Source: an uncultured Lentisphaeraceae bacterium
GTDB taxonomy: Bacteria > Verrucomicrobiota > Kiritimatiellia > RFP12 > UBA1067
Length of the DNA: 64,000 nt
Assembly (NCBI GenBank): GCA_964567665.1
Contig: CAZMNN010000010.1
Span: 70-64,069, forward strand
Direction of reading: 5' to 3'
The notes beneath the pieces were generated by a model. The model was not told the origin of the DNA. It saw only the letters and a list, made by a program, of their open reading frames with translations, and ran no database searches. Within the stretch, counting starts at the first letter, position 1. Every line of letters begins with the position of its first letter. This document shows, one piece after another, positions 23,626 through 63,172 of the stretch. Made by a program: the position numbers and the translations under genes.

Positions 23626-23656
23626 TTGACAGTAAGGAAAAAAAAAATGATACCTT
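23626..23656 (+). promoter_or_regulatory. Putative sigma70 promoter with A10 tract (23638-23647) in the spacer
   Basis: TTGACA (23626-23631), 19-nt spacer, TG-a-TACCTT (23651-23656). Confidence 0.6.
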
Positions 23657-26371: not shown

Positions 26372-29300
26372 ATGACCTTCAGAAAAAAAAAATGCATTTG
26401 CTGCAGTCGTAATTGCAGTTGTCTCCTGTGGTGTGTTTGCCGCTGAAGGCGAACGCCCGCAGAACCTCATCAAAAACCCCCGGTTCGAAGGGGAGATTCA
26501 GAGGCCGTGGAGCCTTGTCAAAGGCGTAGTCCGGAAGGAGACCGCCGCATTGAGCGGCGTGTGGATGCTCTCGGCGCTCGGCAAGAACTATTTCATCGTC
26601 AACTACATGGATGACCCTGACCTCAAATGGGAGGCGGGGGAGGAGTTCACCATTGCGTTGGATGTGCGCAGCAGGGGAGCCGGCTCCACGCTTATGGTCA
26701 TCCACCGCTACACCGCCGCCAACGGTGGCGTAGGAGAGGGATGGGCGACGAGGATTCAGCCTACGGCGGAATGGCATGAATACATCATACCGTTTCGCGC
26801 CACTTCTGGCGGGCAGCCGCGTGGTTTCTCGTTCTTCAAGATCGACAACGGCGCACATGACACAGGCATAGAGATCCGGTCGTTCAAGATGTATCGCGGA
26901 CGGATATCGGCCCTTGATTTCGTTCCGGTCGGGCGAAACGCGAGAGCCGGTGTGCTTGAGGGGGCTGCCATTCCGATGAAACAGAACCTGTTCGGGGTCG
27001 CGGCAAAACCACTGAAGGTTCTTGCGGTCGTTCCGTCGCTCACGTCAGTGCGTGAGGCGAAGCACGTATTCGCCGGCACGGGTGCGGAGGCCCACGTCAT
27101 TGTGGCGGAGGGAAAGGGTGCGAACTCGTTCACGACGGATGACGATTCCAAGAGGATCAGGCATCTCCTCATGACGGGCGGATACGATCTCTATGCATTC
27201 GGCCGCAGATCCGCCGCCGCGATCGGGGAGGAGCTGTTCGCAATCATCGAGACGAACGTCCTGAACGGGGCTTCGGCGTTTTTCGCGCCGACCAGGGATG
27301 GTCAGGCCGGGCTGTTTAACAAGATGCACTCGTCCGCAGCATCCGGCAGATACGGTCGCGGGCGGGTGACGGCGGCAAAGTGGAGAAGGGACGTTGATGG
27401 CGTCGCCGGCGGAAGCGACCTGTCGTTCATCGACAATTCGCCGCTTGCGGATGAATATGCAATCGCATCATTCCCGTATGAGGAGATTGAATTCGCGAGG
27501 ACTGCGGACAGGCTTTGGAAAGCGGCGTTCGGCGCTCCGGATGTTTCGGCGGCGAAAAAGGTCACGGAAGAGAACATATATCGCGGCAAGGTGCATGGCG
27601 TGGAGCGGTATCTGGATTCGAGCGGACGGACGCTTGCGTTCAGTTGCCGGGAGAGTCCGGTGTCCGGCGCATCGCTCGGAGAGATGGTCGACGGCGGCCG
27701 CGAAGTGGTGATACCGGTTTCAAACGGTACGGAGTCGGCAATGCTGAAATGGCGGTTCAGCGATTTCTCCGGACGCATTTTCGGCGAGGGCAGCCAGCGA
27801 GGCTCTTCACGGGTGACGATCGCAGTTCCGCGAGAAAAACTGTATACAGGCCTCGGCGTCCTGGAAACTGAACTTGTCGATGGCGGCAAGATGGCCGACC
27901 GGCGCAACTTCATGGTAATTGAACCGTCGAACGACAGAAAGCGGATGATCGGGGATTACGGCGTGGGATTCTGGTCTGTGTCGTCCGCATATGCCCGCAT
28001 GGACAGGCGAGACATGGTTCGGGCGCTCGGGGAATTGGGGTTCAGGTATGCGTTCTGCCACGGCGGATGGGGCGACATGTACACGAGCGGCATGGCCGCA
28101 ACGCTGTCATACGTAATCGGTGGCGAGTATTTCAGCGGCGGACCGACCTCCGTGAACAATGTGCGTCGCCCAGTGTTCAACACAAAGGAGGCTCGCGGCC
28201 GCATACGCGAGATGGCAACCAGGTGGGCCAAGGAAAACAGACGCCATGGCGGGATGTACGGGTCGTTCTCCGATGAGGCAAGGCTCGGCCCCAACGGGGA
28301 GGAGGTTGACGCCCACCCGGAGAACATAGAGACGTATCGTCTTTGGATGGAACGCAAATACGGGACGATCGAGGAGTACAACCGCAGACATCTCACATCC
28401 CACCGGTCGTTTGCAGACCTCGGTCAGACATTGCTCAAGGATGCGCGGGCGGCGGGCAATGCGGCGGAGTTCATCGAGTGGCGCACATTCAACGTCGACC
28501 GCTGGGTGGAGGTGATCCGTGAAGTCGGCGACGCTATCCGCGAGGTCGATCCGGACGTGCTGTATTCATTAGACAACTGCTTCGGCGAGCGGGCGCTTGG
28601 CGGAACGGACTTCTGGAAGCTGCTGTCCAAGACGGGGCTGGACTACTCGAAGGAGTACACCGCATCGGTCTCGTTCGGCGAAGATCCATTCCATGAGTTC
28701 GATTTCCTGTACCGCTCGTGGCGCCCGGATATGCGCATATGGGGATGGACCGGGTACGGGTTCACGGAAGAGCGTGAGCGCGCTCTCCCGTGGATGACCG
28801 CACTGCACCGTCAGGGTGGCTTCCACTGGTTCGCGGCGACATATTACGGAATCAATCTCCTTGATCTCGTCACGGGCGCACCGACGCTTGATGCGCGTGA
28901 ATGCGGCAGGAACCTTGCCATGACGCGCATGGCGGATGGTCTGGGAAAGACGCTGGCGGACTGGAGCTGGGCGAAGGGCGATGTCGCCATCTACTATTCG
29001 CACGACTCCTGCATCCTTTCGTTCTTCCTCGGAACGGAGACGCTCCGCGACGACTGCCACAAGGGATCGCCATACTGGAATTTCCAGTATTCACGCAGCA
29101 ACGCGAACTTCATGCTGAACCATCTGTTCTACCAGCCGGAATGGGTTTCTCAGGAGCAGGTTGAGGGTGGGTTCCTGAATGGCGGCGACTGGTCTGTGTA
29201 CCGGGCCGGCAAGGTTGTGACCGGACAGCCTCCGTTCAAGGTGCTCATCATGCCGCACATCCTTGCCATGACCGACAGGGAGGTGGCAGCCGTGAAAGCG

Positions 29301-49720: not shown

Positions 49721-49747
49721 TTGAAAAAAAAATCAATATGGTATATT
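49721..49747 (+). promoter_or_regulatory. Putative promoter with A9 tract (49724-49732)
   Basis: TTGAAA, 15-nt spacer, TG-g-TATATT; perfect palindrome GATGAATTCATC at 49702-49713 just upstream. Confidence 0.55.
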
Positions 49748-57554: not shown

Positions 57555-58010
57555 ATGAAGATTCTTGTAGATGGCAGACTGCCAGCCGCAATTGGCCTCA
57601 AAAGGGCTGCGGTGGCGTCTGCCGCTTCGTATTTTGCCGGGCGGTCACGGCGTCGCATCGGCAATCCCGTATGGCACGAAGTCGAAGTGCATCTGATAGA
57701 CGATGCAATGTCGGATGAAGTGCATCGGGCGATAATGGGCATAGCCGGCGCCACGGACGTGGTCACGCAGGCGTACGATTCAATTCCTCCGGAGGAGCCG
57801 GGGCTGTACGGCGAGCTGTTCGTGAACACGGATCAGGCGTTCCGCGCAGCGCCGAAGCGGCCAGGGTGGAATGCCGCCAAGGAGCTGCTGCTGTACATAG
57901 CGCATGGCATGGATCACCTTTCAGGCGCGGACGATCATGAGGAGCGGGACTACCGCGCCATGCGCCGCAGGGAGCTGGGCTGGATTCGCGACTGTCCGGC
58001 CACGCCCTGA
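57555..58010 (+). CDS. ybeY: rRNA maturation endoribonuclease YbeY
   Basis: ATDVVT, GELFVN, LYIAHGMDHLSGADD, AMRRRE. Confidence 0.8.
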   Translation: MKILVDGRLPAAIGLKRAAVASAASYFAGRSRRRIGNPVWHEVEVHLIDDAMSDEVHRAIMGIAGATDVVTQAYDSIPPEEPGLYGELFVNTDQAFRAAPKRPGWNAAKELLLYIAHGMDHLSGADDHEERDYRAMRRRELGWIRDCPATP

Positions 58011-58044
58011 GGTCAACTTTTCGGGTCAATCAGCGATTTGCATA

Positions 58045-58074
58045 TTGACGCAAGGGATATGGTTGTGATACCCT
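58045..58074 (+). promoter_or_regulatory. Putative sigma70 promoter
   Basis: TTGACG-18 nt-TACCCT with TG extension. Confidence 0.45.
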
Positions 58075-58146
58075 ATCTCTCTGTTGCGAGATGTGGTTCG
58101 TTTCGTCCGTTGGACGTTGGCGATGAAATCTGAAAGGAGAAGACTC

Positions 58147-60430
58147 ATGGTTGACGCTTGGAGTGCTGTTTCAGAAGGGATTTTTAGGAAAAAAAAAATC
58201 ACTTTGTGCATCTGTCGCGTGTGTTCTGGCGGGCGGCATCTTTCTGACCGCCGACGCTGAGGACTGGAAGATCGATTCGGTGGACGATCTCACGGCGGCG
58301 CTTTCGCAAGCGGCTTCGGGTGATGTCCTGCTGCTGAATCCGGGGGTCTATGATCTCGCCGGAACGGAAATGGATGAAGAGGGGCATTCGCATCTTGTTG
58401 TGGATAGGCCTATAGAGATGCGCTGCACGGACGGCTTGTCCTGGCGCACGGCATCAGATGGCCTTTCGGGCGCAGTTCTGAAGGGCGGCAGTTCGATGCG
58501 CATTCTGCGTGTCAAGACGGCAGCATCATTCAGTGGCATATCCTTTGTGGACGGAAAGACGTCAGATGACGGCGCCGGCGTATGGATAGATGTCAGCGGC
58601 ACCAGCGACGTGGTCAACTTCACGAATTGCGTGTTCAAGGCCTGCCGCAGTGAAAATGGAGATGGTGGAGGCATCTGTTCGCCTTATTCTGCGACGGCCG
58701 TTGCTCGTGATTGCCGGTTTGAAGGCAACGAGGCGCAGAAGAACGGTGGCGGCGCAATGAAGGGGTTCTATTACTCCTGCGTCTTCTCCAACAACGTGGC
58801 TGTGGCTGCCGGGGGCGGGGCGGTTTCAAGCGGGGAGATGACGGATTGCGTGTGCGGCGGCAACAAGGCGAAGTGGGGCGGCGCAGGGAGCTACGTAACG
58901 GCATCCCGCTGCACCTTCACCGGAAACAGCAGCGGCATTGTCGGTGGAGCGATGTCCAATTCTCACGCAACCGATTGCGCATTTGACGCAAACGTCTCCG
59001 ATGACAAGGGGGGCGCTCTTTACAGCGATGGACTGTATAAGGTGCGTGGATGCACGTTTGCTCAAAACCGCGCGAGGACGAACGGCGGTGCGATATGTGG
59101 TGGACACGCAGTGAGCAATTGCTCGTTCTACGGCAATTCCGCCGCGAATGGCGGTGCGTTGTACGGTGTGCGGACAGCATCGTCTCTATTGGCGGTGCAG
59201 CCGGTTGCGGTGATGGATTCCAGTTTCCTCACAAACACCGTGTCCGGAAGCGGCGGCGCAGTCGCAGAGTGTGACGTTGCATCCTGCCTGTTTGAGGGCA
59301 ATGAAGCGGATAAAGGCGGAGCAGTCACGCAGTCCACGCTTGTGGACTGCGAACTGATTGGCAACAAGGCGAACACCTATGGCGGCGCCGCCTATGAAGT
59401 GGAGACTTGCCGGGATTGCACTTTTGCAGGCAATTCTGTAGTCAGATATGATGGAGGCGCAATCTACCAGACCAAGGCGGGTGCAATCCTTTCCGGATGT
59501 GAGATTGCGAGCAACAAGGTGGTTGGTGCATATCGAAACGGTGGCGGCATATTTTGCACAGCCGGAGGCAGTTCCATGCTCGTCACGAACTGCCTCATCA
59601 TGGCGAACAGTGCGGAGGGGACATCCTCCGCAGGTGGCGTATATGGGGCGACGAATGTAGTCGGCTGCATCTTCCGCGACAACACAAGCGGCTTCTATTC
59701 GGGTCACGCATGGTACTCCGCCTTTCGCGACTGCCGATTCACCGGAAAGGGCGAGGTCGCGATGAGCCGCCTCTACAACTGTGAACTTTACGGCTATCGT
59801 GCGAACAAAGATGACTATTCTGCGCCGCTTGTCGCCAACGAGAGGGAAGAATGGCGGAAGGAGAGTGGATTTCCGGTATTTGAGGCGGTGAATTGCCTTT
59901 TCCGGGATTTGTCCTGCGATGCCATAGTCCGAGTGACCGGTGACGAGGCATACTTCTACAACTGCACGTTCGCCAGCAACGTGTGCGAGAATTCGTTCCG
60001 TCTTCTGCAGGGGAACAATGCAAAGGAGCCGTCGCTGAACGTGGCCAATTGCGTGTTTGGCGGCAACCGCGCAAAAGATGGCGCAGCTGCGGGCGTAAAG
60101 GTCAGCATCGGGTTCACTCCGGTTGCGGCGGATGTGTCGCTCAGTAACGTTCTTTCGGAGGGATACGATCTGCCGTCTTCAATCGGCGCTTCGCAGACAT
60201 CCGGACTTTTGACCGGAGCCGTTCGATTCTGCGGTGATGACAACTTCTGGAACGAACCTGCCTATGCGCTTCGTCCATCTGGGCGGTGGGTGGATCGGGG
60301 CGTGGCCCTGCCATGGTCGGCGGATGCGGTCGATCTCGCAGGACGTCCGCGTGTGCGCGGTAAAGGCGTAGATCTCGGCTGCTATGAGTTTCAGTCCATG
60401 CTGCCAGGCATGAAGATATCCATTCGTTGA
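58147..60430 (+). CDS. Secreted beta-helix protein with GGA[IVL] (Pmp-like) repeats, choice-of-anchor-Q-like tail and C-terminal GMKISIR; start possibly frameshifted at A10 (58189-58198)
   Basis: Many N.A..GGA[IVLM] repeats; DLAGRPRVRGKGVDLGCYE; AGGAG SD 7 nt before ATG 58147, which is in frame only with A9; in-frame TTG 58151 is an alternative. Confidence 0.8.
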
Positions 60431-60442
60431 GGAAATGGCGCG

Positions 60443-63172
60443 ATGAAGAATGTGTATGTCTGTGCTGTTGCATTGTTTTGCAGCCTTATTGCCTGTGCTG
60501 CGCCGTTGCCTTTTGACGGATGGTTCTGCGACCCGTTGGGTTGGCGCATTCAGACCGACGGAGTAAAGGCCTGTGGCGTCAACGGCTTCGCCTGGTCGCA
60601 GGCGCAGTGTGCGAAGCGCGTGTCGTTTTCTGTGCGCATCACGCCGGAGACCGTTCTTTCGCGAACTGGGTGGCCGATTTGCGGCATAGCCATCGGAACA
60701 GATGAGGACAACCGCTGGTCGCTTCAGCTGGTTCGAACTCCGGATGCGAACGGCGCAAAGTGCTATTTCGAGTTCTTTGAGGTTCTGGACGGCAAGGGGC
60801 TTCGCGATTCTGAAACCGGGTTGCGTCTGCGCAGTAGCGTCGGGGCGGATGTCTCATGGTCGGTCGGCGAGACGTATGTGTTTTCGCTTGATTTGGATGA
60901 AAAGGGCATATCGGCGAATGTGTCAGACGCATCTATGCGTGTGATATGGTCGCGAGGATACGATTTCGGTTCCACACGTGCGGTGCGTTCCGGCGCACCG
61001 GCGCTTCGGTCGCATCCGGGGCTTGAGGTCTCATTCACCGGACTTGATCTTGTGGCGTCAGATGTCTGTGGCGGTTTGGCTGGACGTCCAAAGCCGCGTC
61101 CCGCCCCCGCCTACGTTCCGGTTGACGCAATCAGCGTAAAGGCGTCCCACGCAACGGGATATTTTCGCGTTGAGAACATTCCGGGCGGACGGTGGCGCGT
61201 CTTGGATCCGCTTGGAAACGAGACGTTCCTTCGTGGCGTAGACCATGTGCGCTACGTCGGGCATCGCACCGATTGCACAAACCCACCGCGCCGGTACTAC
61301 AAGGAGTGGAACGATGCGCATTACCCTTCGGTCGCCGCCTGGGCTGAGGAGACTGTCGGGCGACTGCGCGATTGGGGGTTCAATATGCTTGGCGGGGATC
61401 CTTCGCAGGAGTTGCTTCATCGCGGACTGCCCGCTGTCGTGGGGCTGAACATCGGCAAGACGCTTGGCCTTCCCGGACGAGCGGCTGACCTGATGATGCG
61501 TCCGGCAAGCGGAGGATCCTTCCCGAATGTATTTCATCCGGATTTCGCAAGGTGGTGCGACTACTGGGCTACGGTTCGCTGTGCGCCGAACAGGAACGAT
61601 CCGTGGATTGTCGGGTACTTTCTCGACAACGAACTTGAATGGGGGGCGCACGGGCCAAATGCGACGGGACTTTACGATATGTCCCTTTCCCTTGATACGC
61701 ACCATTCGGCGAGACGGGCCGCCGAGGCGTTCGCCCGCAAGTGCGGTGTCAAGCGTCCGGCAGAGGCTTCTGCAGACGTCAAGCGCGCATTTCTGGAAAT
61801 GGCCGCAGAGAGGTATTTTTCCGAAACGGTGGGCGCAATCCGTCGTCACGATCCGAACCATATGGTGCTGGGCGTCCGTTTTGCGGGTCTGGCGGGCGCA
61901 GATCCGGTTGTCTGGAAGGTGTGCGGCAAGTACTGCGACATCGTTTCCGTCAACTGCTATCCATGGGTGGATCTTGACAGCGGAGAGGTGATGACCTTCC
62001 GTGGACGCGATTCCGAACTGGTGGCGGATGCCTTTCTGCGCCATAGCGGAATTTCGGGCAAGCCATTGATGGTGACGGAATGGAGCTTTCCTGCGCTTGA
62101 CGCGGGATTGCCGTCAACCTGCGGATGCGGTCAGCGGTTTCAGACGCAACGGCAGCGAGCCTCGGCGACGGCGGCATTCGCCCGTACGATGATTTCGCTC
62201 CCGTGCGTTGTCGGCTACGACTATTTCATGTGGGTGGATCAGCCGCCGGAAGGGCTGAGACCTTCCTTTGGAGAGAACTCGAACTATGGACTGGTTTCGG
62301 AAAAGGGCGTTGTCTACAAGGAGGTGGCGGAGGCGTTGAAAATCCAGCATATGCGCGTTGAAGAGATCCGGCGCAAAGGATGGACTCGGCCCCGCACTCT
62401 GCCGTCCGCCAATCCTGAGCCGATGACGTGTGCGGCCTTTGCCGCGCTTCACGGCATTGCGCCGACAGCACGGCCGAATGTATCCGACGATGGCTGGCGT
62501 TGGTCGAACTCAGCAGGGATGACGCTGTTTGGACGGAAAGGGGCGGACGCTCCCGTTGAAAGCGTGACGCTGAACGGAACGGATCTTGGCAGCTTCAATG
62601 TAATGCTGCAGATGTCGTACAACGGCACTTGGAGCTTCGCAGATTCGTCTTCAGTTGTTGGAATCCGCAGATCCGGCGATGCGATTGTCGTTACCGCACG
62701 AGGCGGATGCGGTGATGTGCAGTTTGAGACAGACGTTCGCATCGTACTTGACGGGTCGCGCCCTGCCTTTCTGGCGGAACTGATGAGTCTGCGCAACTGC
62801 GGAACTGCACCTCTCATTTGTGCGGACATACTGCTTCGCCAGTATTCGCCGTTCATGGAAGAGAGCCGTTCCGACGTTCCGGATCTCTGGAATGCGCCTT
62901 GGGCGGCTGGCTGGTTCGCGAATGATGGCCGATGGTTTGGCGCCTGCACCCGCTCGCCGGAGATAAGGCGATTCTGGTATTGGAAATCGCATCCGGATGC
63001 AGTTTACGCCGTTACGCCCGCAGGGACGGATCCGCTTGTGCTTAAACCCGGAGATGTCCGCTCCTTTGACGGACGGCTGTGGGAGCTGTGCCTTGGCGGA
63101 ACGGAAGGTGGACGGGTGGCCTTTGAACGGCAGCTGTCCATCTTTCTCCCAGCCGTCGTCCGCAACCTTTAA
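60443..63172 (+). CDS. Secreted glycoside hydrolase, GH50/agarase-like TIM barrel with accessory domains
   Basis: TGYFRVE...RWRVLDPLG..FLRGV, LRDWGFNMLG, FPNVFHPDF, WIVGYFLDNEL, DPNHMVLGVRF, KPLMVTEW, GENSNYGLV. Confidence 0.7.
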   Translation: MKNVYVCAVALFCSLIACAAPLPFDGWFCDPLGWRIQTDGVKACGVNGFAWSQAQCAKRVSFSVRITPETVLSRTGWPICGIAIGTDEDNRWSLQLVRTPDANGAKCYFEFFEVLDGKGLRDSETGLRLRSSVGADVSWSVGETYVFSLDLDEKGISANVSDASMRVIWSRGYDFGSTRAVRSGAPALRSHPGLEVSFTGLDLVASDVCGGLAGRPKPRPAPAYVPVDAISVKASHATGYFRVENIPGGRWRVLDPLGNETFLRGVDHVRYVGHRTDCTNPPRRYYKEWNDAHYPSVAAWAEETVGRLRDWGFNMLGGDPSQELLHRGLPAVVGLNIGKTLGLPGRAADLMMRPASGGSFPNVFHPDFARWCDYWATVRCAPNRNDPWIVGYFLDNELEWGAHGPNATGLYDMSLSLDTHHSARRAAEAFARKCGVKRPAEASADVKRAFLEMAAERYFSETVGAIRRHDPNHMVLGVRFAGLAGADPVVWKVCGKYCDIVSVNCYPWVDLDSGEVMTFRGRDSELVADAFLRHSGISGKPLMVTEWSFPALDAGLPSTCGCGQRFQTQRQRASATAAFARTMISLPCVVGYDYFMWVDQPPEGLRPSFGENSNYGLVSEKGVVYKEVAEALKIQHMRVEEIRRKGWTRPRTLPSANPEPMTCAAFAALHGIAPTARPNVSDDGWRWSNSAGMTLFGRKGADAPVESVTLNGTDLGSFNVMLQMSYNGTWSFADSSSVVGIRRSGDAIVVTARGGCGDVQFETDVRIVLDGSRPAFLAELMSLRNCGTAPLICADILLRQYSPFMEESRSDVPDLWNAPWAAGWFANDGRWFGACTRSPEIRRFWYWKSHPDAVYAVTPAGTDPLVLKPGDVRSFDGRLWELCLGGTEGGRVAFERQLSIFLPAVVRNL

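Follow-up and report, generated by a model that had tools for sequence, protein, structure and literature searches.

A poly-A tract in the signal-peptide region of a beta-helix protein gene, a probable phase-variable switch in an uncultured gut bacterium of the Kiritimatiellae/Lentisphaerae lineage

How is a large secreted protein made from a gene whose best-placed start codon is a single base off the frame of the body? This question is raised by a locus near the end of a 64,000-nucleotide stretch of DNA (the window) from the draft genome of an uncultured bacterium (genome G000; 2.53 Mb in 90 contigs, 58.7% GC). The long open reading frame of 58151-60430 encodes 759 aa, with a body of 743 codons, in the +1 frame relative to the ATG at 58147, which is itself preceded by a Shine-Dalgarno sequence (Table 1). 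Read from this ATG the sequence gives MVDAWSAVSEGIFRKKKITLC..., and a TGA is reached after 37 aa. A run of ten adenines (A10), beginning 42 nt downstream of the ATG with 14 codons between, separates the two frames. The spacing of Shine-Dalgarno sequence and ATG, the A10 and the early stop had all been described in an earlier note on this DNA, and all are present, as is a TTG at 58151 which the note pointed out could serve the long frame with no shift.

The A10 tract is thus a homopolymer of at least 8 nt within the 5′ coding region, and varying its length in silico from A7 to A12 shows that gain or loss of one base toggles the gene between full-length and truncated products. Tracts of A9 and A12 give proteins of 760 and 761 aa from the ATG, A7 and A10 give 758 and 759 aa from the TTG, and A8 and A11 leave no start in the body frame. 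The protein restored by removing one A had been put at 750 aa in the earlier note; it is actually 760 aa long. A scan of 57900-58400 for consensus promoters and terminators returned no match, and no stop or Shine-Dalgarno-like element was found at the A10 run itself. The tract was also considered as a promoter spacer, and this was rejected as no -10-like hexamer follows it (score 3/9).

Table 1. Features of the 58147 locus and of the sister tract, in window coordinates.
Feature	Position	Strand	Remarks
Shine-Dalgarno AGGAG	58135..58139	+	7 nt ahead of ATG 58147, 11 nt ahead of TTG 58151
ATG start	58147..58149	+	frame matches body only at A9 or A12
TTG alternative start, body frame	58151..58153	+	usable only at A10 or A7
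GTG	58163	+	second alternative start, body frame
A10 homopolymer	58189..58198	+	encodes KKK in signal-peptide n-region; presumably hypermutable
Signal-peptide h and c regions (SLCASVACVLAGGIFLTADA)	58199..58258	+	by translation and inspection
TGA ending the 37-aa ATG-frame product at A10	58258..58260	+	
Mature right-handed beta-helix protein with PMP-type repeats, putatively secreted	58259..60430, including stop	+	Pfam, NCBIfam
Downstream gene, 909-aa secreted protein	60443..63172	+	starts 12 nt past the upstream stop
Sister A10 tract	26383..26392	+	after ATG 26372; separates signal peptide from 1208-codon body

By inspection, the N-terminus of the precursor has the make-up of a Sec-type signal peptide, with a basic n-region ending in FRKKK, a hydrophobic h-region (SLCASVACVLAGGIFL) and the c-region junction TADA-ED; from the hydrophobic core and the A-x-A motif, cleavage is likely to follow ADA. 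The protein matches the Pfam families Beta_helix (PF13229, 59.7 bits, 3.4e-16) and Chlam_PMP (PF02415, 54.3 bits, 5.3e-15) as well as the NCBIfam model POMP_repeat (TIGR01376). No autotransporter barrel was found in it, and it is therefore not a chlamydial Pmp proper. The 909-aa protein encoded downstream is without a Pfam match; we infer that its gene may be co-transcribed with the beta-helix gene and subject to polarity when the latter is off.

The ancestral start can be judged from relatives in which the gene carries no tract. In the congener G007, the ortholog (66% identity, 756 aa) has at its 5′ end AAAGGAGAA, 4 nt and ATGGTC, and the frame opened by this ATG covers the entire protein; the gene carries no A tract and needs no frame correction. 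The lineage represented by P0003 (73% identical) is also without the lysine run. As the Shine-Dalgarno sequence and ATG-GT are kept in G007, and are in frame there, ATG 58147 is orthologous to a working start. On this comparison ATG 58147 is the ancestral start of the gene, and the tract and its accompanying frame break are recent additions in the window's species. Ortholog N-termini, proposed earlier as a check, therefore bear out that the body of the window gene differs in frame by one base from the original Shine-Dalgarno sequence and ATG. For annotation, the reference protein of this gene would be the 760-aa form with ATG and A9. JGI metagenomes were also scanned for relatives, and none were found.

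Does the tract vary in nature? A cluster of proteins at 99% identity holds 21 members, and the forms described here come from the 15 members listed, on 24 contigs; the allele lengths are deduced from the N-termini of predicted proteins and not read from DNA. Most of the contigs listed (17 of 24) carry A10, represented by six forms in which the gene callers picked either TTG (759 aa) or GTG (755 aa) as the start. Four distinct A9 forms, each of 760 aa with the N-terminus MVDAWSAVSEGIFRKKKS, were found (P0002, P0047, P0049 and, from ENA, P0051) on 4 of the contigs listed, and so the N-terminus that had been predicted from an A9 correction exists, residue for residue, in a natural protein. A single form of 758 aa, which reads GKKS, corresponds to A7 (1 contig listed). 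The window protein is identical to P0040 (A10), and its 743-aa core recurs unchanged in P0002, which is of the A9 type. Other cores with A9 differ by 10 and 13 residues, making at least three diverged backgrounds in all, and one such core is only 3-5 residues away from A10 alleles. The presence of A9 on diverged cores with A10 alleles close by suggests the state has changed repeatedly, that is, recurrent switching; tract length, as deduced from protein N-termini, differs recurrently between identical or near-identical strains. One further form, P0043 (2 contigs listed), has a third-frame N-terminus. It starts MECCFRRDFQKKKS, which corresponds to TTG 58158, in a frame that is closed in the window by a TAG just 5′ of the tract; the P0043 strain must therefore carry extra changes beside the run.

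N-termini of both on and off type are found on identical cores at other loci too. This is the case for the gene on contig C35 (P0155 with P0157, and P0156 with P0158), for the gene on C1 (P0110 with P0112, and P0111 with P0114) and, in a species at 81% identity, for the ortholog of the window gene at 26433 (P0089 with P0091, and P0093 with P0094).

The finding of A9, A10 and A7 on identical or near-identical genes argues for slipped-strand variation rather than for sequencing error or a programmed frameshift that is fixed. We consider it probable, at roughly two chances in three, that the A10 run is a slipped-strand phase-variable (contingency) switch within the signal-peptide coding segment of the gene, and that the window carries an off or low allele. 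In such a switch, replication slippage on the run would alter its length by one base. With 9 or 12 A's, ribosomes recruited by the Shine-Dalgarno sequence and ATG 58147 would translate the complete 760-aa precursor, leading to export of the protein. With the 10 A's of the window, ribosomes from the ATG would terminate after 37 codons, and full-length protein could arise only from the weak, poorly placed TTG 58151 or GTG 58163, or by slippage of RNA polymerase or ribosome on the run, such that little or no protein would be expected from this state. A run of 8 or 11 A's would leave the body without an in-frame start. The switching rate, the levels of expression and the polar effect on the downstream gene are all projections from this scheme.

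The allele in the window is perhaps not fully silent, because A10 predominates and TTG 58151 yields an entirely plausible signal peptide. Taken to its end, this would make A10 the normal expressed state, translated from TTG 58151 or GTG 58163, with the ATG nonfunctional or making a 37-aa by-product and the A run merely supplying three lysine codons of the n-region. The TTG is indeed in frame, 11 nt from AGGAG, and opens a good signal peptide, the n-region being basic and a hydrophobic core and ADA following; the allele it would serve is the commonest (17 of 24 contigs listed); and repeats between alternative start codons are a described class in Neisseria (PMC5084427). Nevertheless, what is conserved with the G007 ortholog is the Shine-Dalgarno-ATG-GT arrangement, an in-frame start in that genome, and the 13-codon open stretch that contains the TTG is statistically not unusual. 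An ATG at 7-nt spacing is also expected to out-compete a TTG at 11 nt. Moreover, other tract genes in the off state are without a rescue start, and the truncated forms of gene 26433 and of the C1 and C25 genes lack the signal peptide. We regard translation of A10 from the TTG as the normal state of the gene as unlikely, and this includes its weaker version, in which the tract would be a rheostat with A9 high via the ATG, A10 low via the TTG, and A8 and A11 off.

A slipped-strand switch must also be weighed against programmed recoding, in which the out-of-frame A10 would be the working form and its frame would be restored in a set share of transcripts by RNA polymerase slippage, or in a set share of ribosomes by sliding on AAA codons, with Citrobacter rodentium tssM1 and Thermus dnaX as models. 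Slippage is proven at runs of 9-11 A, and the A11 of tssM1 supports ~20-25% transcriptional frameshifting (PMC4256274; reviewed in PMC5009743). As in tssM1, an out-of-frame gene here carries 10-11 A's, and the polymerase slippage that partly restores tssM1 is expected on any A10. The tssM1 tract, by contrast, is of fixed length and both of its products are needed, whereas the DNA length of the tract studied here is, as judged from N-termini, polymorphic, with A9, A10 and A7 on identical backgrounds of the 58147 gene itself. Neither the fixed length and arrangement nor the stimulatory element of a programmed site was found at 58189-58198, and the RNA on either side of this tract folds no better than shuffled sequences (z 0.09 and 0.51). 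Off states elsewhere need shifts in opposite directions, and the G007 ortholog needs none at all. Two observations do fit recoding, namely that tract lengths are equal between two species at 6/6 sites and that a sister site in the window is A10 and off wherever it is listed in its own species; for the 58147 gene, nonetheless, we hold programmed recoding to be improbable.

This sister site is arranged just as the earlier note described it, with ATG 26372, TTC AGA and an A10 at 26383-26392. Translation from the ATG stops after 24 codons, the signal peptide and the 1208-codon body being in the +1 frame. All 15 of the same-species cluster members listed have the tract at A10 and out of frame, the ortholog in the sister species G010 (L013) is also A10 and off, and both states are seen in the species at 81% identity, as given above. 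The 68 nt 3′ of this tract fold unusually stably into hairpins (z -3.8). Programmed recoding stays attractive for site 26383, where A10 looks fixed and stable hairpins lie downstream, and gene 26433 may be held off and expressed by slippage. A search of genome contigs with gene 26433 found two loci only. The F-R-K-K-K context to which the earlier note drew attention is certainly shared by the two window sites; it does not extend to a general motif or a recoding signal. In other tract genes the context is MKKKI, VKEKKN, QTKKN or HKEKK. TTY-AGR-A10 was rejected as a shared shift signal because of these other contexts and because the C15 and C35 genes need the opposite correction.

Homopolymers are error-prone and the genome is a 90-contig draft, so that a sequencing or assembly error hiding a true A9, or a gene killed by a one-off inactivating mutation, has to be considered. 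This we find very improbable. Proteins of the A10 type come from at least 17 contigs, in NCBI, ENA and Logan assemblies, and run lengths show a sharp peak at 9-10 instead of a smear. The body of 743 codons remains whole and conserved, and A9 and A10 alternate over diverged alleles, a pattern that a single decay event cannot give.

The two tracts are part of a much larger set. The window holds 10 matches to A9 against 0.32 expected, and over the genome 127 tracts of A9-A11 were counted where an extrapolated decay of run lengths predicts ~2-3 of at least 9. Run lengths are bimodal for both A and T, with a second peak at 9-10 (A runs of 5 to 11 nt number 847, 200, 38, 8, 28, 36 and 2, and T runs are alike). 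The tracts are placed non-randomly, with 82 of the 127 lying either no more than 400 nt upstream of a same-strand gene or in its first 90 nt, and only 6 within genes, though coding sequence makes up ~90% of the genome. Of the 72 genes downstream of tracts, 76% are signal-peptide-like, compared with 31% genome-wide (Fisher 6e-16), and the median length of tract-associated genes is 848 aa against 359 aa genome-wide. After 64 of 121 tracts there is a -10-like hexamer, often TGn-extended, compared with 5.5% of random sites, and TTG or TAG is often directly 5′. About half of the 127 tracts share the layout TTG/TAG-[A9-11]-N6-11-(TGn)TATAAT. With a -10-like hexamer on the 3′ side and TTG/TAG on the 5′ side, most of the tracts (about half or more) would fill promoter spacers. 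Window tracts at 139-147, 303-312, 23638-23647 and 49724-49732 belong to this set.

Coding tracts form a smaller class, with ~10 lysine runs close behind the start codon of genes for secreted proteins. About 5-6 keep the frame and 4 break it; two of the latter need A10 to become A9, and two (C15 and C35) need A9 to become A10. As interior lysine codons are AAG in 80.5% of cases, a run of AAA-AAA-AAA is contrary to codon bias. Two other tracts, at C4:46274 and C64:633, are A10 runs in leaders, outside both spacer and coding region, in the layout TTGACA-N17-TATAAC/G, ~9 nt, TAC-A10-CCA, Shine-Dalgarno sequence and ATG. These lie near the likely transcription start, making reiterative transcription possible. 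Long poly-C and poly-A runs at C2:21920-22070 and C68:54-130, found beside stretches of N and the ends of contigs, have the look of assembly artefacts and played no part in the reasoning.

Across the genus, A9 counts are high (125-250 matches) in eight genomes (G000, G001, G002, G004, G005, G007, G010 and G011) and near zero (<10) in G003, G006 and G008. Loss of mismatch repair was rejected as the cause of the tracts, because MutS is present in 13/13 genomes of the genus and MutL in G000. In G010, orthologous tracts are of equal length at all six sites compared, showing that modal lengths are stable over ~10% sequence divergence. This stability, and the presence of MutS and MutL, weigh against a slipped-strand switch. 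One example is the C35 gene, in which a promoter A10 and a coding A9 are equal in the two species (L022:1539-1640 in G010, C35:14584-14690 in G000). G010 carries a 2-nt deletion just 3′ of the coding tract of this gene, and hence the same A9 would be 'on' there and 'off' in G000.

A close precedent for a translational poly-A switch is the vaa adhesin of Mycoplasma hominis, in which an A8 tract switches at a rate of 1e-3 to 1e-4 (PMC524362). Here, as in vaa, a poly-A tract stands at the 5′ end of a gene for a surface protein, a given length keeps the frame and ±1 turns the gene off, and slipped-strand mispairing would be the cause. The vaa host is a very AT-rich, wall-less pathogen, whereas the A9/A10 tract described here belongs to a gut bacterium of 59% GC; it also differs from vaa in lying inside a Sec signal peptide and in having a second start in another frame. 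In Neisseria pilC, a homopolymer is found in the signal-peptide region. Neisseria repeats are also known to switch between alternative start codons (PMC5084427). The likeness to these contingency loci extends to the repeat lying between the start codon and the mature surface protein, to alternative starts in different frames that can make an on/off switch graded, and to the dozens to ~100 loci per genome. The Neisseria tracts, however, are mostly poly-G/C or multi-base and those of a pathogen, while those described here are poly-A only and mostly in promoter spacers. Coding poly-A tracts are also known from wbeL (A8) and manA (A9) of Vibrio cholerae O1, with reversion shown for manA (PMC3441752). 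These share with the 58147 gene a coding poly-A, single-base deletions and truncated products, and the wbeL/manA off allele is leaky. They are, on the other hand, cytoplasmic biosynthetic enzymes at few loci per genome, and their variation was shown experimentally, whereas ours is deduced from sequence. In the related Akkermansia only 17 genes with tracts >8 bp have been noted, and our literature search found no paper linking Kiritimatiellae with phase variation. Taken at face value, these comparisons would make the site phase-variable in an ordinary way, in an unusual lineage and within a set of unusual size.

In a handful of pathogens, phase variation by homopolymers is textbook knowledge. 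Here it would operate on a large scale in an uncultured, high-GC lineage of gut commensals, on secreted glycan-degrading and beta-helix surface proteins. A wider and more speculative picture, which we put forward as a tentative possibility and are inclined to doubt, is that the tract belongs to a poly-A 'phasome' of >100 loci, which would randomise the choice of large secreted enzymes and adhesin-like proteins that each cell makes. It would comprise ~65-80 promoter-spacer tracts and ~10 signal-peptide tracts, and its bearer would be a non-pathogenic, GC-rich bacterium of the Kiritimatiellae/Lentisphaerae lineage that degrades glycans in the gut. Some sites would act as three-level rheostats, expressed at A9 via ATG and at A10 via TTG and off at A8 or A11, and others, such as 26383, would be kept out of frame and depend on polymerase slippage only. 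If homopolymer phase variation is real in this lineage, many secreted proteins of these bacteria would be entered wrongly in gene catalogues built from metagenome assemblies, as truncated or start-shifted proteins or as pseudogenes, and what a strain can do would hinge on tract states which an assembly collapses. Bet-hedging of the exoproteome would, in that case, help these bacteria face changing glycans, phages and host immunity.

A minor observation concerns the far end of the beta-helix protein. A C-terminal module, encoded in the window at 60350-60430, is common to this gene and four others in G000 (on C1, C6, C32 and C38). It consists of D-x-G-C/A-Y-E, ~10 residues and then hydrophobic-x-[IL]-[STV]-[IV]-R at the C-terminus, and may serve these beta-helix proteins as a tail for sorting or anchoring.
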